Shown: positions 7,842 to 54,233 of the stretch, one piece after another
Numbering within the stretch: the first letter of the stretch is position 1
How the letters are laid out: every line of letters starts with the position of its first letter
From: Ignavibacteria bacterium
Lineage (GTDB): Bacteria; Bacteroidota; Ignavibacteria; Kapaibacteriales; UBA2268
Direction of reading: 5' to 3'
DNA length: 64,000 bases
Assembly: GCA_012518115.1 (NCBI GenBank)
Contig: JAAYTD010000005.1
Location: 155 to 64,154, forward strand
The notes under the pieces: model-generated
Seen by the model: the letters and a program-made list of their open reading frames with translations, nothing else
Databases searched by the model: none
Told to the model about the DNA's origin: nothing
Program-made: the position numbers and the translations under genes

Positions 7842-7880
7842 GGACAAATGATTTTTTAAGATCAATAAATTTTTTTATAG

Positions 7881-7921
7881 AATAGTAGTCGTAGTACATA
7901 AATTACGGCTACTATTTTTTT
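7881..7921 (+). terminator. Intrinsic terminator after etf operon
   Basis: AATAGTAGTCGTA...TACGGCTACTATT hairpin followed by a T run. Confidence 0.65.
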
Positions 7922-8043
7922 ACTCTTGAGAATCAATACTTTTTTTATTGTATATTATTCAAATGGGTATAAAAGCAAACTTAATGTAACTTTAATATAG
8001 TATTCATATTATCTTCACACTAATGTATTAATTTTGTACGTGT

Positions 8044-8051
8044 TAAATTTG
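8044..8051 (+). promoter_or_regulatory. Bacteroidota-type -7 promoter element (TAAATTTG)
   Basis: Matches TAnnTTTG, 40 nt upstream of the receptor start. Confidence 0.5.
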
Positions 8052-8090
8052 TATTTCATAATTTTTTCAAAAACAATATAAGGTTTTTAC

Positions 8091-17650: not shown

Positions 17651-19105
17651 ATGGACGTAAAAGAATTAAATGTAAGATTGTCAAAACTCACTGGTTTGAC
17701 TTTTTCAGGCAAAACTCGCAAAGAAAGTGACTTAATAGGTGATCGCGAAATTCCTAATGAACTTTATTTAGGAGTGCAAACTTTGCGCGCAATTGAAAAT
17801 TTTGATATAAGCAGAACAACATTGCGTGATTTTCCTTATCTTGTACGTGGTTTAGCCGAAGTTAAAAAAGCGGCAGCAATAGCTAATTCAACGCTTGGTT
17901 TATTAGATAAATCTATTTGCGATGCTATTTCAAAAGCTTGTGATGAAATAATTGCAGGTAAACTACATGAAAATTTTGTTGTTGATTTAATTCAAGGCGG
18001 TGCAGGAACTTCGACTAATATGTGTGCTAACGAAGTTATAGCTAATCGTGCTTTAGAAATTTTAGGTAAAGAAAAGGGCGAATACAAATTCTGTAGCCCT
18101 AATGATCATGTAAACTTAGCTCAATCTACAAACGATGCTTATCCGACAGCTTTACATATTGCATTTTTATATTACAACAATGATGTTATTGCAAGTTTAA
18201 AAGAGCTCGTTGCTTCATTCAGAAAAAAATCTGTTGAGTTCAAAGATTTTGTAAAAATGGGACGCACACAATTGCAAGATGCTATTCCTATGACATTAGG
18301 ACAAGAATTTGAAGCTTTTGCAAAAACTTTAGAAATAGAAATCTCGAATTTAGAGTGTGCTGTTTCTTGGTTAAAGTCGGTTAATATGGGAGCTACTGCT
18401 ATAGGAACAGGCTTAAATTGTCATGAAAAATATCCTGAAATTTGCGTAAAAGAATTAGCGAAAATTTCTAACTTAGATCTTAAATTAACTGACAATTTAA
18501 TTGAATCTACTCCTGATACAAGTGGATTTGTATCATATTCGGGAGCATTGAAAAGATTAGCTATAAAAGTATCCAAAATATGTAACGATTTACGCTTGCT
18601 AAGCTCAGGCCCACGTGCTGGTTTAGCAGAAATAAATTTACCAAAGATGCAACCCGGTTCATCTATTATGCCGGGAAAAGTAAATCCTGTTATTCCAGAA
18701 GTTGTAAATCAAGTATGCTTCAAAGTTTTTGGTAACGATACGACTGTTAATTTCGCTGCTGAAGCTGCTCAATTGCAGCTCAATGTAATGGAGCCGATAA
18801 TAGTTGAAAGCATATATGAGTCTATGAACTATTTAATTTCAGCTATGAATACATTAAGAACTCTTTGCATTGACGGAATTACTGCTAATGCAGAACGTTG
18901 CAAAGAAATGGTATTACATAGTATAGGAATTATTACTGCTCTTAATCCACATATCGGATATAAAGCTAGTACTACTATCGCTAAAGAAGCCTTAGAAACT
19001 GGACGCGGAATATATGAACTGATTTTAGAAAAAGGAATTTTAGAAAAATCAAAATTAGACGAAATTTTGAAGCCTGAAAATATGTGTAGCTTCAATATCA
19101 AATAA
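17651..19105 (+). CDS. aspA: Aspartate ammonia-lyase
   Basis: Y.G.QTLRA.ENF, QGGAGTSTNM, STNDAYPT, KMGRTQLQDA, GSSIMPGKVNPV, QLQLNVMEP. Confidence 0.93.
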   Translation: MDVKELNVRLSKLTGLTFSGKTRKESDLIGDREIPNELYLGVQTLRAIENFDISRTTLRDFPYLVRGLAEVKKAAAIANSTLGLLDKSICDAISKACDEIIAGKLHENFVVDLIQGGAGTSTNMCANEVIANRALEILGKEKGEYKFCSPNDHVNLAQSTNDAYPTALHIAFLYYNNDVIASLKELVASFRKKSVEFKDFVKMGRTQLQDAIPMTLGQEFEAFAKTLEIEISNLECAVSWLKSVNMGATAIGTGLNCHEKYPEICVKELAKISNLDLKLTDNLIESTPDTSGFVSYSGALKRLAIKVSKICNDLRLLSSGPRAGLAEINLPKMQPGSSIMPGKVNPVIPEVVNQVCFKVFGNDTTVNFAAEAAQLQLNVMEPIIVESIYESMNYLISAMNTLRTLCIDGITANAERCKEMVLHSIGIITALNPHIGYKASTTIAKEALETGRGIYELILEKGILEKSKLDEILKPENMCSFNIK

Positions 19106-19125
19106 ACAAAATTGAATTATATTTT

Positions 19126-19258
19126 AAAATTCCCATTCCCAGAAGAGGTGGCAAGCGACAGCCTGACGGGGTAGTCGTTTCAACTCCGCTCTACAACCGA
19201 TATGCAAAAAATGAGGGCAGAACACTCTTATTTGCATATTCCACAGGAGGAGAATTTT
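19126..19258 (+). repeat. Composite REP-like element (family A, GTTTCAACTCCGCTC module, family B tail)
   Basis: AAATTCCCATT...GAAGAGGTGGCAAGCGACAGCCTGACGGGGTAGTC. The next module is the reverse complement of 23364-23381. CCACAGGAGGAGAATTT also occurs at 56959-56975. Confidence 0.75.
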
Positions 19259-20999: not shown

Positions 21000-21236
21000 A
21001 TGAAAACTTTTCCAAACGATGCGAAAAAAATTTCTATAGTATTTATTTGTGACTTATGTCAAGAAGAAACACCTGTTGAAGCTTTTGAAGTACCGGCAGA
21101 AGGTGAAAAAATTATACGAGCAATTTGTCCTGTATGTTTTAAAGAATTTGATGTTAAAGTAATACGTAGAGACGGTAAAAGCTGGGTAGAAATTGAAGAT
21201 GTTGAAGAAGATGAAATTACAATAACTGTTGAATAA
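21000..21236 (+). CDS. Small acidic zinc-ribbon-like protein (CxxC...CxxC)
   Basis: CDLC and CPVC pairs; SD-like AAGGAG upstream; terminator downstream. Confidence 0.7.
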   Translation: MKTFPNDAKKISIVFICDLCQEETPVEAFEVPAEGEKIIRAICPVCFKEFDVKVIRRDGKSWVEIEDVEEDEITITVE

Positions 21237-21379: not shown

Positions 21380-23344
21380 ATGCAAAATTCTACGGACAAT
21401 TATCAAGGAAATTATTATTCTAACATTACTCCAAGTCCGAGACGCAAGCGTTCTAAATGGTGGATTCCATTAGTTATTGTTGTCTCTGTTATTGGTTTAT
21501 TTGTTATATCCACAATAGCTTTTTTCGGTTATATTATAAGTTCTTTGGATAGAACTCTTGTTACTGTTAATGATAACAGTGTGTTATATTTTGATTTATC
21601 ATCAATTCCAGAATATGAATTAGATACACCTTTTTCATTTTTCTTTAACAAAACTCCTAAAGCATCTTTTTTAGAAATAACTAACGCTATAAAGGCGGCT
21701 AAAGAAGATGATAGAATTAAAGGAATTTATTTTGAATTTTTATCTCCAACTAGCATATCGCAAGCTAAGGCAAATGAATTACAAGAAGCTTTGCAAGACT
21801 TCAAAGAAAGCGGAAAATTCATTTATTCATATATAGAAGTAAGCGATGAAAACGGATATTTTAATGCTTTACCTTCCGATTCTATTTTCATAGGTGAAGA
21901 AACAATGTTGCTTTTGAACGGATTTGGAATAACTTCCATATTTCCAAAAGGATTACTTGATAAAATAGGAGTAGAATTTGAAGTTGTTCAATGTGAAGAT
22001 TTTAAATCGGCGGGCGAAATTTATAAAAATAAAAAATTCAGCGATTCGGCGCGCTATCAAGAAAAAGTATTACTTTCTCAACATGAAGAAAATTTTATAA
22101 ACGCAGTTGAAAAATTTAGAAAAGTCTCCAAAGAAAACATTTTAAGCTGTTTTAACGAAGGTTTAATTTCTCCTAATGATGTTATTAATAAGAAGTTAGC
22201 CGATGTTATAATGGCACAATCCGATGTAAGACAATTTATAAAAAATAAAATAGAAGCAAAATCAACAGATAAAAAAGATGATAAAACTGAAAAAGTTGCA
22301 AAAGAAGATAACAAAAAATGTTGTCCTTACAAAACAGATGTAGCATCTTGTGACGAAGATCTAATTAGTATTGATAGATATGTACAAAGTCTAAATCAAA
22401 CTCAACCAAGTGAAAAAATTATTGATAAAAATAAAAATATAGCCATAATTTACGGTAATGGTCCTATTGTTTCGGAACGCTCCTACGAACTAACATCAGG
22501 AAATAGTCAAATGATAGTAGCTGATGAATTTGTTAAATATTTAAAAGAAGCTAGAGAAGATAAGTCTATAAATGCTATATTGTTAAGAATAAATAGTCCG
22601 GGTGGCTCAGTTATAGCTTCCGAAGCTATATATCAAGAAATCTTAAAAACAAGAAAAGTAAAACCTGTTTATGCTTCTATGGCTGATGTAGCAGCATCAG
22701 GTGGATATTATATAGCTATGGCTTGCGATACAATTATTGCTCATCCAAGGACAATAACTGGATCAATAGGAGTTATAGCTGCTTATCAAAATATGGAAAA
22801 ATTAGCTAAGAAGTTAGAGATTTCTATAGATACTATATCCACAGGAAACGGAAATCCATTTTTATTAAGTCCGTTTCTACCTTTGAAAAAAGATGATAAA
22901 AATATTATGACAAAACATGTTTTTGATACATATTCAAGATTTCTAACAAAAGTTGCTAAAGCAAGAAATAAATCATACGATGAAATTAGAGCTGTTGCAA
23001 AAGGTAGAGTATGGAGTGGAGAAGACGCTTATGATAAAGGATTAGTTGATGTTTTAGGTGGAATAGATGATGCTATAAAATTATTGAAAAAAAGAATAGA
23101 TGTAAAAGAAAATAAAAAAATTAAAATATACATGTATCCTAATGAATATCACTCAATTAGCAATCTTGTTGATCTTATTTCAAATATGCAAACAAAGAAA
23201 AATAGCATTGAAAACTTGATTATAGAAAGTAATATGATTCCTCAAGATATGCAAAATCAACTTAAATACAGTATGTTTTTAGCTCAATTAGCAAAAACTG
23301 AAAATACTTTGGTTGCTTTGCCATATTATCCTGAAATTAAATAA
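21380..23344 (+). CDS. sppA: Signal peptide peptidase SppA (67-kDa type)
   Basis: N-terminal TM; tandem S49 domains; FKSAGE, INSPGGS, AASGGYYIA, TITGSIGV, AKGRVWSG..A...GLVD.LGG. Confidence 0.93.
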   Translation: MQNSTDNYQGNYYSNITPSPRRKRSKWWIPLVIVVSVIGLFVISTIAFFGYIISSLDRTLVTVNDNSVLYFDLSSIPEYELDTPFSFFFNKTPKASFLEITNAIKAAKEDDRIKGIYFEFLSPTSISQAKANELQEALQDFKESGKFIYSYIEVSDENGYFNALPSDSIFIGEETMLLLNGFGITSIFPKGLLDKIGVEFEVVQCEDFKSAGEIYKNKKFSDSARYQEKVLLSQHEENFINAVEKFRKVSKENILSCFNEGLISPNDVINKKLADVIMAQSDVRQFIKNKIEAKSTDKKDDKTEKVAKEDNKKCCPYKTDVASCDEDLISIDRYVQSLNQTQPSEKIIDKNKNIAIIYGNGPIVSERSYELTSGNSQMIVADEFVKYLKEAREDKSINAILLRINSPGGSVIASEAIYQEILKTRKVKPVYASMADVAASGGYYIAMACDTIIAHPRTITGSIGVIAAYQNMEKLAKKLEISIDTISTGNGNPFLLSPFLPLKKDDKNIMTKHVFDTYSRFLTKVAKARNKSYDEIRAVAKGRVWSGEDAYDKGLVDVLGGIDDAIKLLKKRIDVKENKKIKIYMYPNEYHSISNLVDLISNMQTKKNSIENLIIESNMIPQDMQNQLKYSMFLAQLAKTENTLVALPYYPEIK

Positions 23345-23399
23345 ATAAAAATTTCCGCTTATTGAGCGAAGTTGAAACGACGAAACGAACACCCTTGTA

Positions 23400-23526
23400 C
23401 AAAAAAAGAGAGAATTGTTCCCTAGATCCTAGATTTATTCTCTCTTTTTTTATTATCTAGCTAATCCTTTTTCTTTTCAAAAACTAAAAATGATTGGATA
23501 GGTAAAAAATCAAAAGAATTAATTAG
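23400..23526. repeat. Left copy of direct repeat: bidirectional terminator plus remnant 3' end of methyltransferase gene
   Basis: Near-identical to 35197-35327. Minus strand 23461-23526 encodes LINSFDFLPIQSFLVFEKKKD*. Confidence 0.92.
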
Positions 23527-23615
23527 TAGAACCTTAAAAATGACTTGAAAATTTTTAAATTAAAATAGTTCATTTTTTAGTTGCATAAATCTGCAATATT
23601 TGTTATATTTGTAAT

Positions 23616-23623
23616 TATATTTG
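23616..23623 (+). promoter_or_regulatory. -7 promoter element (TATATTTG; second copy at 23604-23611) for the three-gene cassette
   Basis: Two tandem TAnnTTTG matches just upstream of the barrel gene. Confidence 0.5.
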
Positions 23624-23647
23624 CAATAATAAACCTTGCAGATAATT

Positions 23648-25399
23648 ATGTTAGAAAATTCCAAAAACAAGGACCAAGTTTCGGTGTTTTTTTCTTTAGA
23701 AAACACATTGAAACAAAAAGATGTTATTATTTTATTAATAGTAATAGCTATAATAAATTTTGCGTTTATTAGAAAGGAATTATATGCGCAAGATCTATCA
23801 CAACTGCCTTCTACAAATCCATTTAGCATTGGTGGGTCTATCGGAGTGAATTTATCTTCTTACGGTGCTGAAGGTATACAAAATAGATCTAAAAACTTTG
23901 ATTACTCTCTTCTTGGCTCATTAAATTTAAACATATATGGCATAAATATCCCTTTTAATGCTACTATAAGTGATCAAAATCGAAGCTTTACTCAGCCGTT
24001 TAACCAATATGGAGCAAGCCCTTATTACAAATGGGTAAAACTTCACGCCGGTTATAGAAATATTACTTTTTCTCCTTTTACTTTAGCAGGACATAGTTTT
24101 CTTGGCGGAGGTATTGAACTGACTCCTGGATCACTTCGTTTTGGAGCTGTGTACGGTAGATTTCTTCGTGCTTCTGAGGGAGATACAAATTCATATAGTT
24201 CCATAACTCCAGTATATAAAAGAATGGGTTATTCAGTTAAGTTAGGGTACGGCAGTGCTACAGATAACATAGATTTAATATTTTTAAATGCTTGGGACGA
24301 CAGTACTTCCATATCAAATCCTACTATTAAGAAGAATCTTAAGCCTGCCGAAAATAAAGTATTTGGTATCAGAAGCGCAAAATCTTTATGGAAAAATGTA
24401 TTTTTTGAGTTTGATGCAGCTGCAAGCCTATATACTATGGACTTAAGAGCTGATCCAATAATTGATTCTACTGCTGATCAAACATTGAAAAGCATTAATG
24501 AAATAATTAACATAAATTCTTCTTCGCAATTGACATCATCATTAGCTACTTCATTAATTTATAAAATCAAGTCTTTTGCTTGTCGGTTAAATTATAAGAG
24601 AATTGATCCTGATTATAAATCTATGGGAGCATATTATTCGGAATCAGATGTACAAAATATTACTTTTGCCCCGACATATTCAATGCTTAACAATACTTTG
24701 AGATTAGGAGGAAGTATAGGCTGGCAAACCGATAATTTGTCTAATCTGAAACGAAATTCAACAAATAGGCTGATTGGCTCATTTGATGCTTCTTATCAAG
24801 AGCAGACTTACGGAGTGAATTTACGCTATACTTCTTACGGAATTTCACAGTCAAAAGGATATTCTATGGTTATTGATACATTAAAGATATCCAGAGTAAA
24901 TCACAATCTTAACGCTACAGGAAGATATACATTAAATTTAAATTCTACCTCACATTTATTTTTACTTAATCTTGGTTATCAATCTTTGAATGATAATAAT
25001 GCTCTAACTGCACCTTCTTCAGAGACAAGTAACTATACAGCATTATTTAGTTATAATATGGCTATAAGTGAAATAGGGCTTACTCTATCATCTAATATTA
25101 ACTATATCCATTCTATTGTAGCTAATAATATTAACGACTTTTTGGGACCTGCAATTAATGCAACTTACTCTCCTAAATCTGACTATTCATTAGGAGCAGG
25201 GATCGCCTATCAATCGCAATCGTACAACAGTAACAAGGCTGCCGATATTATTAATTTACAGCTAAATGCTTCGTATAACATTACTAAAAATCATTCATTA
25301 AGATTAGACTGTAACTATTTAAATAACAATTCAAAAACCGAACAACCAAGTTTTTCTGAAGCAAGAATTAATCTTGGCTACATATATAATTTTTATTGA
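23648..25399 (+). CDS. Putative outer-membrane beta-barrel protein (cassette gene 1)
   Basis: Alternating amphipathic strands throughout, ending INLGYIYNFY. The best signal peptide begins at TTG 23708 (MKQKDVIILLIVIAIINFAFIRKELYA). Confidence 0.7.
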   Translation: MLENSKNKDQVSVFFSLENTLKQKDVIILLIVIAIINFAFIRKELYAQDLSQLPSTNPFSIGGSIGVNLSSYGAEGIQNRSKNFDYSLLGSLNLNIYGINIPFNATISDQNRSFTQPFNQYGASPYYKWVKLHAGYRNITFSPFTLAGHSFLGGGIELTPGSLRFGAVYGRFLRASEGDTNSYSSITPVYKRMGYSVKLGYGSATDNIDLIFLNAWDDSTSISNPTIKKNLKPAENKVFGIRSAKSLWKNVFFEFDAAASLYTMDLRADPIIDSTADQTLKSINEIININSSSQLTSSLATSLIYKIKSFACRLNYKRIDPDYKSMGAYYSESDVQNITFAPTYSMLNNTLRLGGSIGWQTDNLSNLKRNSTNRLIGSFDASYQEQTYGVNLRYTSYGISQSKGYSMVIDTLKISRVNHNLNATGRYTLNLNSTSHLFLLNLGYQSLNDNNALTAPSSETSNYTALFSYNMAISEIGLTLSSNINYIHSIVANNINDFLGPAINATYSPKSDYSLGAGIAYQSQSYNSNKAADIINLQLNASYNITKNHSLRLDCNYLNNNSKTEQPSFSEARINLGYIYNFY

Positions 25400-25433
25400 A
25401 ATAAATAATTAAAAATAAAAGGAGAAAATAATA

Positions 25434-28400
25434 ATGAGAAAATTTGTAAAAAATAATATATTCAGGATGAAATACCTTCATGTATTATTTTTTGTCCTGT
25501 TAATAAATATTCCGGCAATTTCGCAGGAATATCCAATTGAAGTTACTCTTCAGATTCCGCCACCGTATTCTCCATATATCGTAGATTACTTGAACGGCAC
25601 CCCTAATTCAGTAGCAATTATTAGAAATATTTCTAATAGCGAGCAGAAAATTAAATTTGTAGGTACAATTACAGGAGATAACGGAATAAAAATACAAACC
25701 AATGAGAATTATTCTCCTCTTCAACCTCTTGTTCTTAATCCTATGGAGACAAAAGTACTCAACAGTGCTACATTCAAGAATTATTATAAAGCTGATAATT
25801 TCGACGTTTCAGGCTTTGATAAAAATGAAATAATAAGGTTGGGCACTCTGCCTGAAGGTAATTATGATATTTGCTTTAAAGCTCTTGATTATTCAAGCGG
25901 TCAGCAGCTTTCTCAATCAGAGCCGATGGGTTGCATTAATATTCCTGTAGAATATGCTGACGTTCCGCAGCTAGTTATGCCGAGAGATTTAGATACACTT
26001 TACTCTATTCAAATGGCGCAACCCCCGACAGTTTTTACTTGGATAGCTCCTACTTCTCTATCGATGGGAAATTTTGAGTATAATTTACAGTTGTTGGAAA
26101 TGCCCGATGCTACTGCTGATCCGAACACGGTTATGGGCGCAGCAACACAATTTTTGATTGATCGCAAAACAAATGCAACATCATATATTACCACCCCTTC
26201 TGACCCTAAGTTTATTCCGGGGAAAATGTATGCTTGGAGAGTAGTTGTGAGCGATAAATTTAATAAAATTAAATTTAGGAATAATGGCATTAGCATCGCA
26301 TGGAAATTCTTTTATTTAGATCAAGTTGTTTCTTCAGGTTCTACTTCTGACACTTTAACTCCGGCTCTTGGTTCTTCTGATACCGATCCTAAAGCTTGCA
26401 ATATTAAAATTCTTGTGCCTGATATTGGAAATGTAAATGAAAATACTGAAGTACAGGAAAAGATTAAAATGCTGGAAAAGACCAAATTGCAGGAAAATAA
26501 ATTAGTACATCTAACTAATAATGAAAAAGTCAAGAAAAACTTTAATTTCAATGACAATATTCCTATAATTGCAGTTAATAATTTAAATGATTTTTATGTT
26601 ATGTGGGAAAATACTGCAAAGCCTGCAGAACACGAAAGCTATAAAATTAATATTTTTGATTTGCAGGATAATCTCATATTTTCTTATTTAAAAACAGATC
26701 TAAATGATACAAATTATTTGTTTGGCAAAATTCCTAATGTACACTTTTTACAGCGCAGTAAAAACGAAATGTATATGCTTAAGGATCAAGAATTATATAA
26801 TTTGCAGATTGTGCAAATTGAATCTGCGTCCGACAGCATAATTAATTTATCCGAAAAGCGTCAATTTAGATATGTTATTATGGCAGACAGTGTTTCGTCC
26901 AATAAAAAGATTTACAATATTAGCGGAAAAATAGTATATAAATTTCAAGACTCACCTGAGGAATATCCCGCAAATTTAGAAAACATTCAGTTGGAGAAAT
27001 TCATTATGATAAAGAATGCTACAACAGGCGCAATTATAGCAGATGGGATTTCTCCATTAAAGTACGGAATTACAGAAAAGAATACTATTACGATACCCGT
27101 AGATGAAGATGGTGCTTTTAATGCTCCGTTCAGCGCTGCTGATGGAAGTGGAGATATTAGCGAATTAATAAAGGGAACTCAAAACCAGTCATCTCAAAAT
27201 AAATCACCTGTAAATCAGACACCCAAGGACCAGTTAACTACAAACCTACATATCTATGGCGATAATAAATACTACGAATATTATGTTTTAAAACTTAACA
27301 ATCCGCACTATGTAGAACCAAATATTCGTGTAGAATTAAACTCCGATTCTATGCAGTTAGGCACAATCTCAACTTATGTATGGAGCTATACTCTGAAATT
27401 GAAAATTACTCAAGGGTACAAATACGGCAATTTAAAACTTACTGATTTTAAAGATTATGACTTTACTTGCGTAATGATAAGACCCAATTATACGCAACAG
27501 CATAGAAAGCAGATTCCATTTTATGAAGGTGATATAACTAAACCTGATCAATATGGTGATTTTGGGACGTATAAATATGTCTATGATCAAGGAGAGCAAT
27601 CAGGCAGAAAAGCGACTGTAACTCAGGAAAAAGATGAAAATGGGAAAATTCAAACATATCTTACATTTAAAAACTTATTGATAAATCTAAATGATGCAGA
27701 GAGATATGAAATTAAAATATACTCCAAGTATAAAAAACCTACAGCAATTGGAAAAGGACAAAATGGTGAAGGCACGCGAACATTGTCTTTTAAACCATCT
27801 ATTCACCACAAATTTTTAAGTGCAAATAATAAAAAATATAATTTCCATTTAAAGACTACTTGCAACCTTATTGTAGATGGCTATCCTACAGCAAGTTTGA
27901 GTGGAAAATTAGTATATAGAGACCCCGGAAATCCGAAAGCTACAATCAAGCCTATTGCTAATACTTGGATTGGACTTATTGTAACGTATTATGTGCAGGA
28001 CGCGAATAATAATAAAACTATACTTGACCCATATCACGTATTGCAAGAAGCAAAGGATAATAAAAATAAAGCTTGCCAGACCTGGGCGGGAAGTTTGACA
28101 AATCCAATTGAATATGCTGCTTCCGTTGATGATTCTCTTGAACATCCATTTAAAGATGGAAACACCCTAATCGCCTGGACATATACAAATAATGATGGCT
28201 CATTTCTCTTTAAAGATTTTAAACACTTAGATTCTCTTAAAACTTGGGATGAAAAAAGATATTTTGTATCCTCGGGTTCGCACGAATCTCAAGCAGGGGT
28301 TTACATTGACGGTAAAGTCGTTAGGACAGTTCGCTTAGTTTTCCCGAATTTTCAAAAGAAATATTTTTATGCACCGTCAAACGATATTCAAATTCAACCA

Positions 28401-31400
28401 TTTGATTCAATGGATGTAGGTACTTTAACAGCATATTTAAGGACTTACAATTTAACAGTTAAGCCTGTGAAAAGTTGTACAGATAATGAAGAAAAAGATA
28501 AAGGAGGGGCAATAAGAAAAGCCAAAGTTAAAATAGAGCGGAAATATGATATTCCTGATTATGAAGTAAAATTTCAATCCGATAAAATCGAATTAGGTGA
28601 AAAATATGTAGAAGGTGGAGACGGAGTTACTTTTTACGGATTGTTTATGCATAACAAAGGCAGCTTTAACGATGGATACAAAATTACTACAAAAACAAAT
28701 GACACAATAGGAGAATATTCGTATAAACCATCAGTTATAGAATTCCCTCGCGGATACGAAGAATGGAAAAAATCTTGCGATTATATTAATAAACCATATG
28801 ATAAATATAGTGAAGACAACAGAAATAAAAAATCTTTAGACAGTCTTTATGGCAGAAAAATAAGCGATTATTTATTTGTTGAAGATTATGTACCTATAAA
28901 CTATTCCATAAATGTTTATCTTGAACCGAAACAACCTATAATTTCCGGTAGAATATTGGATGCTTCTAATCCTATGCGCAGTGTAGAAAGTGGAGTTGTT
29001 GGTATTCGTCGGTATAAGCAAAATGGAGGACTTACTTTGGAATATAAAAATATTGGGGAGAATAAATATAACGGATATTTTGTATTCCAAAATTTAGAGA
29101 CTAGTCCAAAAGAGAAGTATAAATTGACAGTTGAGGCAAAAGGTTACTATTTATACGGTACAAAAGAAATTGATAAGAACGGCGACACAAGTGCTATGAA
29201 AAGCATTAACATAGGTAGCTATATTCCACAAGGGCAGAATGATTATATTACTCTATCTAAAGGACAACAGGTGCATTACGCTCAAATACTGATGATGCCG
29301 AAAGGTAGGATTACCGGTAAGATTATAGATGAAGATGGGAAACCGGTAAAATGTTATGTTCGTACAAGTCGCAGCAGTATGCAAGAAACTATTTTTAGTT
29401 TAATGGATTTTGTTGCTCAAGGAGCATCTCAGCGATTTTCACTTCGAGTACCTACCGGAGTATATGATACTTTATTTATTTTCCCTAAAGATTTGAAATA
29501 TTTTAATGATACAGTATTGATTAAACCACTGAAGGATGTTGTTGATGCTACGCTGGATATGGGTACGATCGTTGTAAAAGAGCGCCGGCACAGAATTGTA
29601 GTAAATGTATATAGAAAGAGCAATCCTGGGGAGAATAGCGCTCTGACCCATGTTTCCGATGTAGTACCTCTTTCTAATATTGAAGTAAAAATTCTTGATT
29701 ATAGGCAAACAACAAGTGGACATGGTAAAGCGGAATTTAACTTTAAAAATGCGTCTCAAAAGAATTTTTGGGTAAAAATTACTCCACCTAAAGGCTCTAT
29801 TTATATGCCAATGGAAGCAACTATTGAAAATGAAGAAAGTAAAACTAACACTACATACATTTTTACATTGAAAAAAGGCTTTACTGCAAAAGGAAAAGTA
29901 GAAATAAACAGTACAAACGGAAGTAAAATACCCGCTAAAAATGCAACTGTTTTTGCATCTTTTGGAGATATTCAAGTCAAAACTCAAACTGATTCCACAG
30001 GATATTATTCTCTGTACGGCATTCCTACAAGTATGGTAATTGATTTTCATCAAAAGAAAAGGTATCAACATGTGAAAATAAAATGTATCCCCAGTGAAAA
30101 TGATAAATCATCCGGTATTATGGGTTGTGATTCTGCAATTTATTTTGATATGAATTCTGAAGAAACGCCTAAAACAGTTGATTTTACTTTGGCAAGCTTT
30201 GATAAAGCAAATATTAGCAGACTAAATGGCTTTAATGTAAATATTTATTCTATAAAGCCAAAAGATGGTTATTCTGACAGATTTGATATCAGCGGAACAA
30301 TTGATTTAAATTCCGGATTAGATAATTTTACTCTGCTCGATACTGCCAAACTTATAAAATTTACTGATATGTACGTTAGTCTGTCCAAAGAAAAAGATAG
30401 AAACGGCAAGCCTTACCTCACGGTACCCGATAATGGCGGAACATTAGATATTGTGAGCTTAAGGACAGTACTAAAAGGAAATAAATCATTAATATTTTCT
30501 CACGCCACATACGATTATAATATTCTGATTAACCCGGCAGCAGACAATAAATTGAGAATAATTCGTATCGATGATAAATCTGGAAAAATAAGTGCAAAAG
30601 CCAGAATTGTAGATAACTCTTTCAATTTTCCCGGTAGCTATTTCCGCTTTAATGATGAACAGTTTTATCTTTCCGAAAAAACGGGAAATAATAGTTTTAG
30701 TCAGTATTTAGATGTTTTTTCTACTAATACTTCAAAAAAATCAAATTCCGGGACAGATAATACAAATTCCGGAATAAAGAATATAAATAAGAATATGAAT
30801 GTTGAGGTAAATAATACAAATTCTGTGATAAATAAGACAAGAGATAACTATTATTTCAGCGATGAACAGGGGAAAACTCTTAAATTTAAATTCCTGAATT
30901 TCAATGCTACTTCAGAGGAAAAAGAGAGTTATATTGATAATATAGGAAATATTACTATTAAGCCTGTAGCTAAATCTAATATTCGGCTTGATCCGACTAA
31001 TCCGAAATCGGTTAAAATAATTAAAGTAGATTTACCCTCTATAGTAATTAATTCGGAAGGAATTTCCTGTTCAGGCAAAATAAAGGAAATATCGATTGAT
31101 CTTGAGAAATGGAAAATTATTGCTCGTGATTGTGATGTATCGCCTGAATTAGGCGGGATTTATTCAACAAAAGCGAAAATTTCTACAGGTAGTTTAGATA
31201 TTGATATTGCTGAATTTAATTTACGAAGTGATTTTATGTTTCTTGGCAAGCCTAATTTATCATATTTACCTCTTGGCGATGTAAGCCGGATTAATATTAC
31301 TAAGGGATCACAAATATTTTTCGGTTTAGATCCTCGCTGTGGCAATGATTTAGGAACACATTACAAGCTAACTGTTTGCAATGAACGTTGTGCGGGATAT

Positions 31401-32954
31401 ATACAAAACCTACCCGGAATAAGTAAACTAGAATTTCAAGCTATTTCGATTTTGAGCAATGGTGAGCCACCGATTATCAGTTTCCCACCGGGCAGCGATA
31501 ATATTACGCTGTACGGTATTGTCAATTTCCGCCCTTATACTATAGAAGCATACAAAGATGCCTTTACAGTGAACGGCGCTCTTGATTTTGGATTGCCTCG
31601 CATTCCTAATGGAATAAATTACAAGCTGGAATATACTAAGCCAAGCAATTCTATTAAATTCAGACTAATTCCAAGTGACGTAAAATTCGATGCTCCGGGC
31701 TATACCAAATTTGAATCAATAGCTACTCAAGATAAACAAGAAATGAGTATGGGGCAAGTCAAGCTTTATGGTAGAATATACGAGCCCGGAAAACTTGATC
31801 CTATTAGTGTAGTGCTGACAAAGAAGATAGAAAAGAAAGAAATGGAGTATTCTCTCTCGAAGAATCCAAATGTAGGAGAGCAATTCATTTTAATGAATGG
31901 AGATCAAAACAAGTTCAGAATAGAAGCTTCAAATATGATGCGAACAGGAAGCACTATTCAAAATTCTATAATGGCGAATCCGGATAATGACTGGGATTTA
32001 TTAAGGCTTACTCTGAAACCTGTGGGTAAACTTGCTGATGACAGTTTTGGAAATAAAGAGCTATATTTTGCAGTACACGGTGATATTAAAACAGATGAGA
32101 CAGTATCAAACCAAACAATTGAGCCCCCACAGCCTGAAGGCTCGAAAATTAGTTTTGGTGATTTTGTTATGGTTTTCAATTTGCAGGAGCCTTCGTTTTA
32201 TGGCTCAATGAATATACCTGAAAAGTCTTTTGGAGCGGTAAAATTTGGTGGTACAGCAGAAATAAAAATTGATCCACACGGATTTTATTTTGTAGGAGCT
32301 GGACTTGGTGATGTGCCTCCATTAGGAGCTTTTGGCATAGGTATGATCATAGGCGATTATAAAAAAGGTGGCTTTTTGGGTGGCGTGCCTGAAAGTGCAA
32401 TTTCTAAAGTTACTCAATATTCAATAGGTAAGGGCTTACCTTGTGCATTTGAGAAATCAACTACATTTCAGGGCGTATTTATTACCGGAAAGAAATCTAT
32501 TCCCGGTTTATATTACAATGAATCAGTAAATGTATTTGTAGGAACTGCTTCAGTACATACAGATGCTGGAATGGATGCGAGTGCATGGTTTAAATTTGGC
32601 GGAAGTGGTGGTATTGCAGGAGGCGTGGCAATGACAATGTTCGCAATAGCAGAACTTAAATTAGAAGCTATTACCTGTACGACACTTGAGGCTGGAGCAA
32701 AAGCAATTGCAAAAGCTACAGCTGAATTTCAAAACAAAAACTTTTCACTGGGTTTGTGTGCCAGTTTAGAGGTGTATGGAAGCATTCAGCAAAAAGTTCC
32801 TCCTATGATTGGCGCACCTTGCGACTCGGGAGTTGTATTATTCGAATTTGGAGGAACTTTTATTAAATTAAGAGCTGATATAGGATTTAGTTCGTCGAGT
32901 GGATTAAGTGTGTCTTTCGGTAAAGGTTCTTGTGAGACGAATAAATGTGATTAA
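25434..32954 (+). CDS. Giant secreted protein (2506 aa), N-terminal TANFOR-like domain plus FN3/carboxypeptidase-regulatory-like modules
   Basis: Signal peptide, then QEYPIEVTLQIPPPYSPYIVDY...L.EGNY.IC...CINIPV (resembles the TANFOR domain), then PQLVMP..FTW..EY.LQL..YAWRV. Gly-rich beta C-terminus; no T9SS CTD. Confidence 0.7.
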   Translation: MRKFVKNNIFRMKYLHVLFFVLLINIPAISQEYPIEVTLQIPPPYSPYIVDYLNGTPNSVAIIRNISNSEQKIKFVGTITGDNGIKIQTNENYSPLQPLVLNPMETKVLNSATFKNYYKADNFDVSGFDKNEIIRLGTLPEGNYDICFKALDYSSGQQLSQSEPMGCINIPVEYADVPQLVMPRDLDTLYSIQMAQPPTVFTWIAPTSLSMGNFEYNLQLLEMPDATADPNTVMGAATQFLIDRKTNATSYITTPSDPKFIPGKMYAWRVVVSDKFNKIKFRNNGISIAWKFFYLDQVVSSGSTSDTLTPALGSSDTDPKACNIKILVPDIGNVNENTEVQEKIKMLEKTKLQENKLVHLTNNEKVKKNFNFNDNIPIIAVNNLNDFYVMWENTAKPAEHESYKINIFDLQDNLIFSYLKTDLNDTNYLFGKIPNVHFLQRSKNEMYMLKDQELYNLQIVQIESASDSIINLSEKRQFRYVIMADSVSSNKKIYNISGKIVYKFQDSPEEYPANLENIQLEKFIMIKNATTGAIIADGISPLKYGITEKNTITIPVDEDGAFNAPFSAADGSGDISELIKGTQNQSSQNKSPVNQTPKDQLTTNLHIYGDNKYYEYYVLKLNNPHYVEPNIRVELNSDSMQLGTISTYVWSYTLKLKITQGYKYGNLKLTDFKDYDFTCVMIRPNYTQQHRKQIPFYEGDITKPDQYGDFGTYKYVYDQGEQSGRKATVTQEKDENGKIQTYLTFKNLLINLNDAERYEIKIYSKYKKPTAIGKGQNGEGTRTLSFKPSIHHKFLSANNKKYNFHLKTTCNLIVDGYPTASLSGKLVYRDPGNPKATIKPIANTWIGLIVTYYVQDANNNKTILDPYHVLQEAKDNKNKACQTWAGSLTNPIEYAASVDDSLEHPFKDGNTLIAWTYTNNDGSFLFKDFKHLDSLKTWDEKRYFVSSGSHESQAGVYIDGKVVRTVRLVFPNFQKKYFYAPSNDIQIQPFDSMDVGTLTAYLRTYNLTVKPVKSCTDNEEKDKGGAIRKAKVKIERKYDIPDYEVKFQSDKIELGEKYVEGGDGVTFYGLFMHNKGSFNDGYKITTKTNDTIGEYSYKPSVIEFPRGYEEWKKSCDYINKPYDKYSEDNRNKKSLDSLYGRKISDYLFVEDYVPINYSINVYLEPKQPIISGRILDASNPMRSVESGVVGIRRYKQNGGLTLEYKNIGENKYNGYFVFQNLETSPKEKYKLTVEAKGYYLYGTKEIDKNGDTSAMKSINIGSYIPQGQNDYITLSKGQQVHYAQILMMPKGRITGKIIDEDGKPVKCYVRTSRSSMQETIFSLMDFVAQGASQRFSLRVPTGVYDTLFIFPKDLKYFNDTVLIKPLKDVVDATLDMGTIVVKERRHRIVVNVYRKSNPGENSALTHVSDVVPLSNIEVKILDYRQTTSGHGKAEFNFKNASQKNFWVKITPPKGSIYMPMEATIENEESKTNTTYIFTLKKGFTAKGKVEINSTNGSKIPAKNATVFASFGDIQVKTQTDSTGYYSLYGIPTSMVIDFHQKKRYQHVKIKCIPSENDKSSGIMGCDSAIYFDMNSEETPKTVDFTLASFDKANISRLNGFNVNIYSIKPKDGYSDRFDISGTIDLNSGLDNFTLLDTAKLIKFTDMYVSLSKEKDRNGKPYLTVPDNGGTLDIVSLRTVLKGNKSLIFSHATYDYNILINPAADNKLRIIRIDDKSGKISAKARIVDNSFNFPGSYFRFNDEQFYLSEKTGNNSFSQYLDVFSTNTSKKSNSGTDNTNSGIKNINKNMNVEVNNTNSVINKTRDNYYFSDEQGKTLKFKFLNFNATSEEKESYIDNIGNITIKPVAKSNIRLDPTNPKSVKIIKVDLPSIVINSEGISCSGKIKEISIDLEKWKIIARDCDVSPELGGIYSTKAKISTGSLDIDIAEFNLRSDFMFLGKPNLSYLPLGDVSRINITKGSQIFFGLDPRCGNDLGTHYKLTVCNERCAGYIQNLPGISKLEFQAISILSNGEPPIISFPPGSDNITLYGIVNFRPYTIEAYKDAFTVNGALDFGLPRIPNGINYKLEYTKPSNSIKFRLIPSDVKFDAPGYTKFESIATQDKQEMSMGQVKLYGRIYEPGKLDPISVVLTKKIEKKEMEYSLSKNPNVGEQFILMNGDQNKFRIEASNMMRTGSTIQNSIMANPDNDWDLLRLTLKPVGKLADDSFGNKELYFAVHGDIKTDETVSNQTIEPPQPEGSKISFGDFVMVFNLQEPSFYGSMNIPEKSFGAVKFGGTAEIKIDPHGFYFVGAGLGDVPPLGAFGIGMIIGDYKKGGFLGGVPESAISKVTQYSIGKGLPCAFEKSTTFQGVFITGKKSIPGLYYNESVNVFVGTASVHTDAGMDASAWFKFGGSGGIAGGVAMTMFAIAELKLEAITCTTLEAGAKAIAKATAEFQNKNFSLGLCASLEVYGSIQQKVPPMIGAPCDSGVVLFEFGGTFIKLRADIGFSSSSGLSVSFGKGSCETNKCD

Positions 32955-33010
32955 TCAAGTATTATTATATTAAATTTAATTGAAACCAAATAAATTATAA
33001 TGTTAAAGAT

Positions 33011-35050
33011 ATGAAAACAGTAATAAAATTAATAGGGATATTGGCAATAACATTTATTTTTTCATGCAACTGTATATTTGCTCAAAATAATTATCCTCGA
33101 CTAACTATATGTAAAGATGGTATCTTTATAGAATGTGGGAATGAAATTCCTCGCAACTTCAGCTATAAAATACAGAAAACTTTTACAGGAAAAGAAGAAT
33201 GGGAAGACTTGGTTATACTTCATTTTAGCGGTGATAAGCAAGTATTTTTTAATGATTTATATAATTTGCAAGAAACAATTGACTTTAATTTTCTCTTTAA
33301 CCAATCTTTTGATGATCAACTGTGGGATTTTATTGGTAAAACTGCCATTTCAGATTCTGTGCCTTTTGCAGGTGTAGTTCCTATTTATTTAGCAGCTTTA
33401 AAAACAGCATATTTTGACAGCGACGTAAAATTAGGATCTGAATATAAGTATAAAGTTACACGTATTGATAATAACGCAAATTCTTTAGGTGAAAATTTAA
33501 GTAAGCCTATAAAGTTTAATGAAAAGAAAAATGATATTAAGTTAAGTAATTCAAAAGCCTTGCCCGGAGATGAAAACGTCATTTTGGAATATAAAGTGGA
33601 TTATAACGATGGCAGCTTCTACAGAGCTAAAATCTTCAAATCTGTTTACTTGCAAACAGATTTTGAGGATGCTGGATTAAGTGCAGGTATTTCAAGCAGA
33701 GAAGGAAATCTTATCATTTCCTGTACGGACACTAATGTTCGTGAGGGAAGGATATATTTATATTTCGTAGTGCCTTACGATAAATTCGGAAATGCAGGAG
33801 CTCCATCTGACACGGTTAGAGTAAATAACACTTCATCAAATTCTAAATCAATAGCAGCAGAATTAAGAGCAATTAGCGACACAGCGAATAAAGCCATTGT
33901 ATTAACATGGAAGTATATGCAGCATAAAGATTTAGTTGGTATAAATATCTATAAATCTACAAATTACGATAAAGATTACGAATTAATTGCTAATCTATCC
34001 AAGGAGGATTCCGTCTATATAGATGGAAATGTTAATCCAATTCAGACTTATTTCTATTACATAGAAACTCAAACAGTATTTGGTAGGTCTGTTCCAAGCA
34101 CGAGAGTAATAGGAATGCTTGAAGCCGCATACAAAGCTGTAGCTCCGCATACGATAGATGCTATAAATACTGCGGACAATATAGTAAAGATTACTTGGAG
34201 TAAGCCTTCAGTAGATACCAGAGCATATTATGTTTTTCGTTCGGTAAATATGGAGGATTCAAATTTTATACAGGTTAGCAGTCAAATATTAGATGATACT
34301 AGTAATGTAATTACTTATTATGATACTGTAAATATACAAAATCTTTACTCATACTATTATGCAGTAAAATCCGAAAATACAAGTTATGATATAAGTCCTT
34401 TTTCGGAAAAAGTATCTGTCAGCATCCAAAAACCTAAAATGGATTTGCCTGTTCCTATGAATCTCAATGCACGCTCATCGGGGGATGGCTCGGTACTTTT
34501 AGTTTGGGACAATATGGAAGAAATAGATTATGCATATTCAATCGCTTCATATAAAGTTTATCGCAAAATTTTGAAATCATCAGGAGAAGATTCTACTGAT
34601 TTTGTAGAATTGAATGATTCTCAGGAAGAATTTCCGGAATTGAATAATTATTTTGAGGATAAAGATATAAAGCCCGGAATTACCTATTTGTATGCAGTAA
34701 AAACTATCGGAAAAAATGGTGAGGAAAGTGCATTATCTGCTCCTATACAAGCTTATATTCCTATTTTTAGACCACTTTCTATTCAAAACATCAGCGCCGT
34801 TAAAGTAGCTGGTAGCGAAGGGATTACACTTAGTTGGAATAAAACTTCTCAAACTAAAGTTGTAAAATATAAGATATATCGCAAAAAAGTAGGAAGTCCT
34901 CAAGAACTTATTTCAGAGTTAGAGCCGGAAACCGAGCAATATATCGATAAAACAAATCTGAATCCTAGTGATGTTTTTTATACTATTACCTGCGTGGATA
35001 AAGACGGTATCGAAAGCAGTATTGAAGAATGGAGCGGAATAGAGTATTAA
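33011..35050 (+). CDS. Secreted fibronectin type III repeat protein (cassette gene 3)
   Basis: Repeated VLTW / ITWS / LVWD / LSWN...Y.IYR...Y.D...Y.Y.V FN3 signatures; signal peptide. Confidence 0.8.
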   Translation: MKTVIKLIGILAITFIFSCNCIFAQNNYPRLTICKDGIFIECGNEIPRNFSYKIQKTFTGKEEWEDLVILHFSGDKQVFFNDLYNLQETIDFNFLFNQSFDDQLWDFIGKTAISDSVPFAGVVPIYLAALKTAYFDSDVKLGSEYKYKVTRIDNNANSLGENLSKPIKFNEKKNDIKLSNSKALPGDENVILEYKVDYNDGSFYRAKIFKSVYLQTDFEDAGLSAGISSREGNLIISCTDTNVREGRIYLYFVVPYDKFGNAGAPSDTVRVNNTSSNSKSIAAELRAISDTANKAIVLTWKYMQHKDLVGINIYKSTNYDKDYELIANLSKEDSVYIDGNVNPIQTYFYYIETQTVFGRSVPSTRVIGMLEAAYKAVAPHTIDAINTADNIVKITWSKPSVDTRAYYVFRSVNMEDSNFIQVSSQILDDTSNVITYYDTVNIQNLYSYYYAVKSENTSYDISPFSEKVSVSIQKPKMDLPVPMNLNARSSGDGSVLLVWDNMEEIDYAYSIASYKVYRKILKSSGEDSTDFVELNDSQEEFPELNNYFEDKDIKPGITYLYAVKTIGKNGEESALSAPIQAYIPIFRPLSIQNISAVKVAGSEGITLSWNKTSQTKVVKYKIYRKKVGSPQELISELEPETEQYIDKTNLNPSDVFYTITCVDKDGIESSIEEWSGIEY

Positions 35051-35109
35051 ATTTACAATTAATAATGAATAATGAATTGTTGGGGTGAGCCTTGTAGTTA
35101 CACTTTTTT

Positions 35110-35161
35110 AAAATTCCCTTTTGGAATGAAAGGGTGGCAGGCAAAGCCGAACTGGGGTAGT
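35110..35161 (+). repeat. REP-like element (family A)
   Basis: AAATTCCCTTTT...AAAGGGTGGCAGGCAAAGCCGAACTGGGGTAG. Confidence 0.7.
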
Positions 35162-35196
35162 TTTTTAAAACGATATAACTTCCATTTTACAATAAA

Positions 35197-35327
35197 CAAA
35201 AAAAGAGAGAATTGTTCCCTAGATCCTAGATTTATTCTCTCTTTTTTTATTTTCTAGCTAGCTAGTCTTTTTTCTTTTCAAAAACTAAAAATGATTGGAT
35301 GGGCAAAAAATCAAAAGAATTAACTAA
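35197..35327. repeat. Right copy of direct repeat (terminator plus functional 3' end of methyltransferase)
   Basis: Aligns with 23400-23526; AAAAAAAGAGAGAAT...ATTCTCTCTTTTTTT hairpin. Confidence 0.92.
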
Positions 35328-35828
35328 AGAATAGCCTGCCTCGCTCATTTCTTTTTTAATTACTTTAATTTTCGTATAATGAGAAGAAAATTTTATTCTA
35401 TGCCAAGAAAAACTACTATCGTAATCTATGATAACTAATTTACCATTTTCTTTAAGATATTTAGCCATATCCATAAAGTATTTTACTCGCCCCGACAGAT
35501 GATGATAAACATTGCGACTAAAAATCAAATCAAATTCAATATCTAAATTTAGAATTTCTTCCGGCTTTGATAGTATGCATTTCATATTTTTATACAAACT
35601 TTGTTGATTAACTTTTTCTAAATACTTAACGCAATCAATATCAGTGTCTATTCCGTAATATATTCCGTTTTTTCCTATTATATCAGAAAATTTTTCAGCA
35701 AAATATCCACCTCCGAAACCTATTTCAAGAATTTTCATATCTTCTTTTATATCTAAAGATTGTATAATTTCTTTAGATTTATTTTTCGGGTCAGCTGCTT
35801 TTTTATTATATTTTTCAATTTTTTCCAT
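35262..35828 (-). CDS. Class I SAM-dependent methyltransferase
   Basis: ILEIGFGGG motif I, FDLIFSRNVYHH, LKENGKLVIID. ATG at 35828. Confidence 0.85.
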   Translation of the reverse strand: MEKIEKYNKKAADPKNKSKEIIQSLDIKEDMKILEIGFGGGYFAEKFSDIIGKNGIYYGIDTDIDCVKYLEKVNQQSLYKNMKCILSKPEEILNLDIEFDLIFSRNVYHHLSGRVKYFMDMAKYLKENGKLVIIDYDSSFSWHRIKFSSHYTKIKVIKKEMSEAGYSLVNSFDFLPIQSFLVFEKKKD

Positions 35829-35831
35829 AAA

Positions 35832-35839
35832 CAAAGATA
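35832..35839 (-). promoter_or_regulatory. -7 promoter element (TATCTTTG) 3 nt before methyltransferase ATG
   Basis: Minus strand reads GTATCTTTG-TTT-ATG. Confidence 0.5.
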
Positions 35840-35875: not shown

Positions 35876-36204
35876 AAAATTCCCATTCGGAACGACTGTT
35901 GGGGCGTATCGCATACGCCCTTATTGTCTGAACCATAATTAATAGATATTAAAGGATTAGCAGGATTTTTTCAATTAGCAATGAATTGTAGAGGCAATCC
36001 TTTGTGATTGCCATTATTTAAAATTCCTCTTTGTGGAATTGTCGGGGCGTGTCGCGACACGCCCTACAAAGTTTGACAGGGTAGTCCCACACCTCCCCCG
36101 CTTCGCGGGTACTCCTCTCAAAGAGGAGAATTTTCCGCTCAGCGATGTTAGCAAAATTCCACTTTAGAACGAAGGGGTGGCAAGCAAAAATTGACGGAGT
36201 AGTT
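35876..36204 (+). repeat. Long composite REP-like mosaic
   Basis: Modules GGGCGTATCGCATACGCCC; TTGTCTGAA..AGGATT; GTAGAGGCAATCCTTTGTGATTGCC; GGGGCGTGTCGCGACACGCCCTAC; family B; family A. 35971-36086 matches 56809-56924 with 2 mismatches. Confidence 0.88.
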
Positions 36205-54003: not shown

Positions 54004-54233
54004 AAAATTCCCCTTCGCAGAAGGGGGCGGCAAGCGTAGCTTGACGGGGTAGTCTATTTTATCAGCATCGGGATTTACAGGATTAAAGAATTAGCAGGAT
54101 TTTTTAAATTAACAATGAATTGTAGGGGCAATCCCTTGTGGTTGCCATTATTTAAAAATTTCCCTTGCCTGAAGGCAGGGCGACAAATTCCCCTTCCCAG
54201 AAGGGGTGGCAAGCGAAGCCTGACGGGGTAGTC
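54004..54233 (+). repeat. Composite REP-like mosaic (A, AGGATT module, GTAGGGGCAATCCC module, A)
   Basis: Two complete family A units, e.g. AAATTCCCCTTCCCAGAAGGGGTGGCAAGCGAAGCCTGACGGGGTAGTC. Confidence 0.88.

Follow-up and report, generated by a model that had tools for sequence, protein, structure and literature searches.

A strain-variable islet without mobility genes between two copies of a methyltransferase gene end in an uncultured Ignavibacteria bacterium

Organization of the sppA-methyltransferase locus

The stretch of DNA analysed here, referred to below as the window, is 64,000 nt long (contig JAAYTD010000005.1 of assembly GCA_012518115.1, positions 155 to 64,154 of the forward strand) and comes from an uncultured Ignavibacteria/Kapabacteria-like bacterium of biogas and anaerobic digesters. 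Between sppA and a methyltransferase (MT) gene it carries an 11.8-kb block of three co-oriented genes, the cargo, which fill positions 23648-35050 and are bracketed by a direct repeat of the MT gene end. The interval is a strain-variable chromosomal islet without a mobility gene; it is present in some strains of this organism and absent from others.

The left flank is the conserved gene sppA (21380-23344, plus strand), which encodes a signal peptide peptidase of the Peptidase_S49 family (Pfam PF01343, E 4e-60). It is followed by an intergenic spacer (23345-23398), made up of a small terminator-like hairpin (23354-23370) and a tail, tL (23369-23398), and then by the left copy of the repeat. The left end of the inserted DNA is the region from 23527 to 23647, for which no homology to any empty site was found by alignment. 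There are three closely spaced TAnnTTTG motifs in this region, found by eye on the plus strand. They are of the Bacteroidota -7 type, a promoter type that a sigma-70 consensus scan leaves out. Judged against the known Bacteroidota consensus, the region is a putative promoter of the cargo's own.

On the right, the 145 nt between the stop codon of the last cargo gene and the right copy of the repeat (35051-35195) are REP-like repeats and native spacer, not cargo. Two REP-like modules, X then Y, stand directly 3' of the stop codon (35051-35160) and are followed by the native spacer tail, tR (35161-35195), and the native part of these 145 nt is homologous to one type of empty site. The intact MT gene (35262-35834, minus strand) encodes a class I S-adenosylmethionine-dependent methyltransferase of 188-190 aa (Pfam Methyltransf_31 and related families); the start given in database records is two codons downstream of that of the 190-aa form. 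A scan of contigs with the MT protein returned only remote archaeal and Poribacteria methyltransferases.

A first-pass annotation of this DNA, made from the sequence alone, had described the island as lacking an integrase, and this is borne out. Three open reading frames fill the interval, and no integrase, transposase, relaxase or other recombinase was found in it with Pfam and NCBIfam. The intergenic spaces of 120, 34, 56 and 145 nt are too small for the remnant of a mobility gene. As regards insertion sequences and transposons, there is no transposase, there are no terminal inverted repeats among the 25 longest inverted pairs, and the duplication is 128 nt long.

The duplicated gene end

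The duplication of a terminator and the MT gene end, also reported in the first-pass annotation, was confirmed at 23399-23526 (left copy) and 35196-35327 (right copy). The start-to-start spacing of the copies is 11797 nt, to which a 4-nt indel is added. Each copy consists of a bidirectional terminator and the final 21 codons and stop codon of the MT gene. In the left copy the hairpin (23401-23451) is followed by a 3' untranslated region (UTR), a stranded MT stop codon (23461-23463, minus strand) and the last 21 codons (23464-23526, minus strand), and the minus-strand translation ends in LLINSFDFLPIQSFLVFEKKKD and the stop. In the right copy the hairpin (35198-35248) is followed by a 3' UTR with an extra CTAG, the true MT stop codon (35262-35264) and the last 21 codons, and the translation of the intact gene ends in SLVNSFDFLPIQSFLVFEKKKD and the stop.

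The differences between the copies are unevenly spread. There is no mismatch in the first 56 nt (23399-23454), and there are eight differences in the next 72 nt, namely seven substitutions and one 4-nt indel. The non-coding part accounts for one substitution (23455, A/T) and the CTAG indel. The other six differences lie in the 21 homologous codons and are all transitions. Five of the six are synonymous (GAT/GAC, AAG/AAA, CCT/CCC, TTA/TTG and CTA/TTA) and the remaining one exchanges Ile and Val, exactly as listed in the first-pass annotation. Of the possible transitions in this stretch 38% are synonymous, which gives a probability of ~0.03 for five or more out of six by chance; the excess is suggestive, not overwhelming. 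The changes in the relic, as we call the stranded left gene end, also avoid second codon positions.

The identical 56-nt tract holds a hairpin of 15-17 bp between an A7 and a T7 run. Folding is strong on either strand (dG -17.5 and -21.5 kcal/mol; z-scores -4.2 and -5.9), and the hairpin is therefore a bidirectional terminator. Both copies of the terminator have the same loop variant, in which CCTAGAT is doubled, and this variant is absent from every empty site.

At the far end, homology between the copies stops at 23526/35327. There is a possible AGAA microhomology just beyond it (23529-23532 and 35329-35332), which is one base out of register and at chance level for a G+C content of 30%. To the left, the duplication possibly extends for another ~30 nt, at only ~71% identity. 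The spacer tails tL and tR are alike at 20 of 28 positions, a score reached by 3 of 500 shuffles, and may be distantly homologous to each other.

Recurrence of the junctions in independent assemblies

Six assemblies that differ in sample, source and assembler, one of them a 2.56-Mb contig, agree letter for letter at the left junction, and the left repeat copy is identical in L003-L008. The right junction is found in two further assemblies (L017 and L018), built with k141 and SPAdes. We also examined 24 sequencing runs as Logan contigs. The contig graphs of runs X1, X2 and X12 are consistent with the repeat-island structure, and the junctions recur in a diverged clade (runs X13-X15, ~1-4% divergence). 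The contigs L008-L010 terminate within the repeat. Misassembly of the repeat, which the first-pass annotation had named as a possible objection, was checked in this way, and the junctions recur across independent assemblies.

One contig of run X11 has a different structure. It is 542 nt long, lies on window positions 23209-23522 and 35196-35547, and joins the sppA side to the body of MT through one terminator with zero mismatches. It looks like a perfect empty or excised site, and this was rejected: island pieces and flanks have the same depth as the contig (3.7), and in this run the junction into the terminator is simply uncovered. Its probable origin is a de Bruijn path that ran through the identical 56 nt at 3-4x coverage. 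The case calls for caution when such contigs are mined for excision events.

Empty sites and the chimeric make-up of the repeat copies

Lineages with an empty site were located by exact look-ups of members of the MT protein cluster. They are conspecific with the window strain or its sisters (nucleotide identities: hslU, 96.9%; sppA, ~95.6%; aminotransferase, ~95.7%; MT, 94-97%). The first-pass annotation had stated that removal of the interval restores a plain convergent sppA/MT pair sharing one terminator, and this is the arrangement found in nature: sppA is directly convergent with MT in L011, L012, L015, L016, L019 and L020.

The empty sites fall into three types. Type A (L015 and L016; MT end EKKKD) has sppA, a short spacer, the terminator and MT, with a gap of 107 nt. 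In type C (L011-L013; MT end GKNN) the gap is ~200 nt; after sppA it opens with the same 25 nt as in type A, continues with REP-like modules and a spacer tail of another kind, and leads through the terminator to MT. Type B (L019 and L020; MT end GKNN) is like type C minus the middle, and its gap is 73 nt. Cassette-free relatives that carry both repeats would have refuted the interpretation in the first-pass annotation, as was pointed out there; the two repeats were not found together in any of the three types.

By alignment, the left spacer of the window is of the type A haplotype and the right spacer tail is of the type C haplotype. Between tL and the type A tail 20 of 23 positions agree, and between tR and the type C tail 30 of 36; in each case none of 500 shuffles was as good. 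The 3' UTR and MT end of the right copy depart from the type A allele at a single position and share CTAGCTAG with it. The left relic equals no empty-site allele; it is without the CTAG duplication and has ATTAT in common with types B and C. The left copy thus combines an A-type spacer with a distinct MT end, and the right copy combines REP-like modules and a C-type spacer with an A-type MT end. Aligned in this way, the two copies look like reciprocal chimeras of A-type and C-type haplotypes with the exchange point in the terminator.

Mosaic alleles and gene conversion

The MT gene (35262-35834 in the window; compared with L011-L020) is a patchwork of at least three allele lineages, in which blocks of 40-200 nt have been swapped between strains. 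The alternative C-termini, EKKKD and GKNN, are due to an indel at the stop codon. The MT allele of the window equals that of L018 over 420 nt, has a B/C-type patch of 40-65 nt around 35360-35400 and has an A-type end. In L017, A-type and window-type blocks alternate. The mosaic alleles show that homologous exchange is frequent at this locus. A phylogenetic breakpoint within MT was one of the checks suggested in the first-pass annotation; breakpoints are present, but they reflect general mosaicism rather than one clean exchange.

In the X13-X15 clade the repeat copies are identical over 23426-23512. A single 91-nt contig serves both copies, with a depth of 26.3 compared with 12.5-13.6, and the copies differ at 23522 and 23525 only. 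This contig is of mixed type: ATTAT is left type, the CTAG duplication and G/T at 23464/23467 are right type, and A/T at 23502/23505 are left type. Gene conversion between the repeat copies is demonstrably active.

The functional MT copy of this clade has the left-type CCT and TTA codons. The synonymous states of the relic at 23502 and 23505 are real, function-compatible alleles, since they are found in the working MT of an island-bearing clade. This goes some way towards the proposal in the first-pass annotation that both ends were once functional alleles, although gene conversion could also explain the sharing.

The cargo

The first cargo gene (23648-25399, plus strand) encodes a 583-aa outer-membrane beta-barrel protein with a signal peptide, ~26 strands and no POTRA domain (AlphaFold2 model, pLDDT 82.5). 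Its top PDB match in a fold search was MtrB (6r2q_B, TM 0.49), followed by other barrels of 22-26 strands, and in Pfam there was only a weak match to Porin_4. The second gene (25434-32954, plus strand) encodes a giant secreted protein of 2506 aa with a signal peptide. A model of residues 1-340 (AlphaFold2, pLDDT 83.9) gave generic Ig/FnIII fold matches, and the first 300 residues form two Ig/FnIII-like sandwiches that are weakly TANFOR-like (27.2 bits against a cut-off of 67 for NCBIfam TIGR02542). The middle of the giant protein has a CarboxypepD_reg-like repeat. The C-terminal ~600 aa are Gly-rich and conserved at 29-46% identity in four proteins, and the last 606 aa have no Pfam match and no toxin domain. 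The third gene (33011-35050, plus strand) encodes a 679-aa secreted protein with Fn3 repeats (Pfam fn3, E 2e-8). The 3' 700 nt of this gene are 99.9% identical to those of L017 and L018, so the island end is nearly constant across strains whose MT genes differ by 1.4-3.4%.

There are 38 homologues of the barrel in metagenomes (loci L022-L059), with 30-53% identity, and 35 of these directly precede a giant gene with a conserved N-terminus. The N-terminus of the giant protein is conserved over ~300 aa and has a PPYSPY motif and two invariant Cys residues. The barrel gene and the giant gene are an ordinary conserved chromosomal two-gene module that is widespread in metagenomes of the FCB group. 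The two proteins, for which there is no assigned family, may be a dedicated export or anchoring pair, and the cargo would then provide a surface protein together with the barrel by which it is exported or anchored. The cargo is strain-variable and therefore probably of ecological relevance, and the islet draws attention to an uncharacterized conserved pair of a barrel and a TANFOR-like giant across FCB-group bacteria.

Several other identities were considered for these proteins. Two-partner secretion (TpsB/TpsA) was rejected: the barrel has ~26 strands, lacks POTRA domains and has MtrB as its best fold match, there is no ShlB or Haemagg_act Pfam match in the cargo, and the N-terminus of the giant protein is the two Ig/FnIII sandwiches. 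Usher and LptD-type identities for the barrel are not supported by the model and fold matches.

TANFOR-domain polymorphic toxins with Fn3 neighbours have been described in Bacteroidetes (Jana, Salomon & Bosis 2020, PMC7073777). The islet resembles them in its giant protein with a Sec signal and a weakly TANFOR-like N-terminus, its Fn3 neighbour, its strain-variable presence and a host with cargo of the type IX secretion system nearby. In contrast with these toxins, the giant protein of the islet scores 27 bits where 67 are required, has no recognisable C-terminal toxin domain or immunity gene, has a C-terminus that is conserved, not polymorphic, and is preceded by a dedicated barrel that is constant in its family. 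The gene downstream of it encodes the 679-aa Fn3 protein, not an immunity protein. The identification of the giant protein as a polymorphic toxin is thus not supported.

Origin of the islet

The explanation that we favour, with moderate confidence, is insertion by RecA-type recombination, either as a Campbell-like single crossover or by homology-facilitated illegitimate recombination (HFIR), followed by gene conversion. The cargo would have entered the convergent sppA/MT spacer by the general (RecA-type) recombination of the host, and the homology used would have been the common terminator and the MT 3' end. In the form that we prefer, one partner of a Campbell-like single crossover within the terminator would have been a chromosome with an A-type empty site. 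The other would have been a circular DNA that carried the cargo and REP-like modules together with a C-type spacer, the terminator and the ~21 final codons from the functional MT of another strain. A crossover of this kind would leave a direct repeat with an identical tract and a chimeric pattern. The identical tract and the common loop variant are as expected from a crossover or heteroduplex tract or from later conversion. In the alternative form, a linear fragment anchored in MT would have been inserted by HFIR. Either route would leave a direct repeat in which one copy completes the live gene and the other is stranded, and the stranded copy would show mostly synonymous differences because it is derived from a working allele. 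After insertion, sequence would be exchanged between the copies by gene conversion, and recombination in the flanks would spread the whole locus from strain to strain. From these patterns we infer the mechanism of the crossover, its circular intermediate and the direction of the event.

The repeat copies of a Campbell-type insertion are expected to be reciprocal chimeras of two parental haplotypes, and this is the pattern seen here, with the C-likeness of the left relic weakly supported. Homology-facilitated insertion, as proposed in the first-pass annotation, explains the same structure. The recipient that it predicts, with an A-type spacer and a left-type end on an intact gene, was not found among the lineages compared, and under HFIR type A would have to be a secondary deletion product. 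The first-pass annotation had also held that the cassette arrived linked to a new MT allele and that the old end was stranded on the left. This direction is not established, as the right end is close to the type A allele and the relic matches no empty site; arrival of the relic on the inserted DNA, as in a Campbell-type event, fits at least as well. The interpretation in the first-pass annotation is thus supported in part.

There are a number of points that count against insertion by RecA-type recombination. A circular form, the donor configuration and a recipient with identical flanks were not observed in the Logan contigs of the 24 runs or in the assemblies. The left relic is C-like by virtue of one substitution and one indel state, and the probability of ~0.03 for the synonymous bias is only modestly low. 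The island-specific loop in both terminators requires an extra conversion step in any two-parent model, so that heteroduplex repair at the crossover or later gene conversion is needed, and gene conversion itself blurs the history of the locus. HFIR would call for a naturally transformable host, and the mosaic alleles show recombination, not its route. Finally, HFIR is rare relative to plain double-crossover replacement (PMC5361080).

A wider proposal, which is conceivable but doubtful, is that the repeat acts as a portable, enzyme-free attachment site and that the whole cycle of excision, transfer and integration depends on host recombination only. Recombination between the copies would release a circle of the cargo with one hybrid repeat, and this circle, taken up by another strain, would re-insert at any empty sppA/MT site by a single RecA crossover. 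If true, such a cycle would explain why an island of 99.9% identity lies beside diverged MT alleles, as well as the clade-specific patterns of conversion.

Among the rival explanations, an origin in situ is unlikely. Here a local tandem duplication of ~130-160 nt, comprising spacer tail, terminator and MT end, would have been followed by insertion of the cargo between the copies. In a variant of this, the duplication would have arisen during illegitimate insertion. In both versions the differences would have come later, as the live copy underwent allelic replacement and the relic decayed. The mosaicism of MT shows that the live copy is easily replaced, the loop variant shared by both terminators and absent from empty sites looks as if it came from one sequence, and the possible distant homology of tL and tR would fit. 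However, two independent events are needed at the same point, the A-type left spacer and the C-type right spacer with its REP-like modules are left unexplained, and the changes in the relic avoid second codon positions.

Integrative islands may target the 3' ends of genes (tRNA, tmRNA and protein-gene att sites) and carry a replacement end. The islet resembles such islands in that its borders are direct repeats of the target 3' end (128 nt) with an identical core (the 56-nt tract) and that one border has the intact gene, the opposite one a displaced fragment. Site-specific integration would make it a decayed or satellite island whose att site is the terminator and MT 3' end and whose tyrosine or serine recombinase has been lost or is encoded elsewhere. 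The crossover would then lie in the identical 56-nt core, which has a dyad-symmetric hairpin and diverged arms. Against this, there is no integrase, excisionase or other recombinase gene in the interval and no space for a pseudogene, and an arm borne by the element would have to include the 145 nt of REP-like modules and spacer that are homologous to a chromosomal empty-site haplotype. The identical tract also varies by clade and is far longer in X13-X15, which is the behaviour of conversion and not of a fixed core, and many FCB-group genomes have the cargo as an ordinary chromosomal module. We therefore regard site-specific integration as quite unlikely.

An ancestral island, with all empty sites as secondary deletions, is improbable and could apply to type A only. 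The type A site is the exact product expected from recombination between the repeats, but its terminator is without the loop variant of the island. Deletion between the repeats could not have given types B and C, as these have the C-type spacer with REP-like modules, no A-type tail and a GKNN end, and the stranded gene end itself shows that there was an insertion or duplication in the past. A mis-join of the repeat or of the island position in assembly is extremely improbable, because although short-read de Bruijn contigs break at the repeat (L008-L010) and have taken a wrong path once (X11), the junctions recur in at least eight assemblies (k127, k141, SPAdes and the 2.56-Mb contig) and in two diverged clades.

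Comparison with known systems

HFIR is known from natural transformation of Acinetobacter, Streptococcus pneumoniae and Pseudomonas stutzeri (de Vries & Wackernagel 2002, Prudhomme et al. 2002 and Meier & Wackernagel 2003, as cited in PMC5361080) and has also been found in conjugation of Escherichia coli (PMC3240628). The islet is like an HFIR product in that foreign DNA without mobility genes would have been placed by host recombination alone with a single homologous anchor. HFIR events have one junction within homology and a second one with no homology or a microhomology of 3-8 nt; the islet may be alike in this, although its possible AGAA microhomology is at chance level, as described above. 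In contrast, HFIR usually deletes recipient DNA and leaves no 128-nt direct repeat. A single reciprocal crossover with a circle would account for the repeat and its chimeric make-up no less well.

Orphan 3' gene ends and immunity genes are left by displacement at Rhs, contact-dependent inhibition (CDI) and type VI secretion system (T6SS) effector loci (PMC5361080 and references therein). There, as in the islet, an incoming module brings a working gene end and the former end is stranded, with no integrase. At those loci the displaced end is that of the toxin gene itself and arrays grow by repeated events, whereas in the islet it is the end of an unrelated neighbouring MT gene of housekeeping type, a single event took place, and the peptides encoded by the two ends are almost the same.

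The minimal mobile elements of Neisseria (PMC3082526, PMC1538595) are alternative contents between the same conserved genes, without mobility genes, and are exchanged by homologous recombination in mosaic flanks. The islet resembles them in these respects, with one occupied and three empty types of site, no mobility genes and a mosaic MT. Flanking direct repeats are no part of the definition of minimal mobile elements, whereas the islet has a specific duplication scar.

The islet is a clear example of a known process; it is instructive, would not surprise a specialist and involves no new mechanism. It would be a natural example, far from the model transformable bacteria, of a large surface-protein module gained and kept polymorphic without the machinery of mobile elements. 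The stranded, once-functional gene end and several unoccupied alleles can still be read at this locus. Islands that lack an integrase and have long direct repeats are thus not necessarily decayed integrative elements.

REP-like repeats and other features of the region

The REP-like modules next to the cargo belong to a dispersed, modular family whose modules are combined in various ways just past gene ends. There are copies in the window at 35051-35160, 19100-19174, 54100-54231, 58082-58150 (minus strand) and 36002-36033, and in L011 at 3440-3545, 6040-6230 and 7880-8070. Module X is AATGAATTGTAGGGGCAATCCCTTGTGGTTGCC, module Z is ATATGATTACCGTGATTTTAAGAT, and module Y consists of AAATTCCCC, a hairpin and GGGGTGGCAAGCGAAGCCTGACGGGGTAG. 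The modules in the sppA/MT spacer vary by strain: type A has none, type C has Z and Y, and the window has X and Y.

A search of Rfam gave no family for the terminator, for a 95-nt element of the spacer or for the REP-like repeats. The 95-nt element had been considered as a structured RNA with compensatory changes; this was rejected, as it is a module of the dispersed REP-like family. The 50 nt after the stop codon of the Fn3 gene were likewise rejected as a homologue of the type C spacer, being a different REP-like module (X, not Z).

Two observations concern the genes upstream of sppA. There is a conserved open reading frame of 78 aa between hslU and sppA (21000-21236), with a gene call in every related contig. 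It has no Pfam family on record, and in NCBIfam there were marginal matches only (Trm112-like or ferredoxin-like, E ~0.02-0.07). Also upstream, a tricorn-like protease is called as 1089 aa with a Peptidase_S41 match in other contigs, and as 1348 aa with POTRA and Omp85 matches at its end in L006 (1111-5157; a JGI contig). The long product of L006 is due either to a strain-specific rearrangement or to a chimeric contig.

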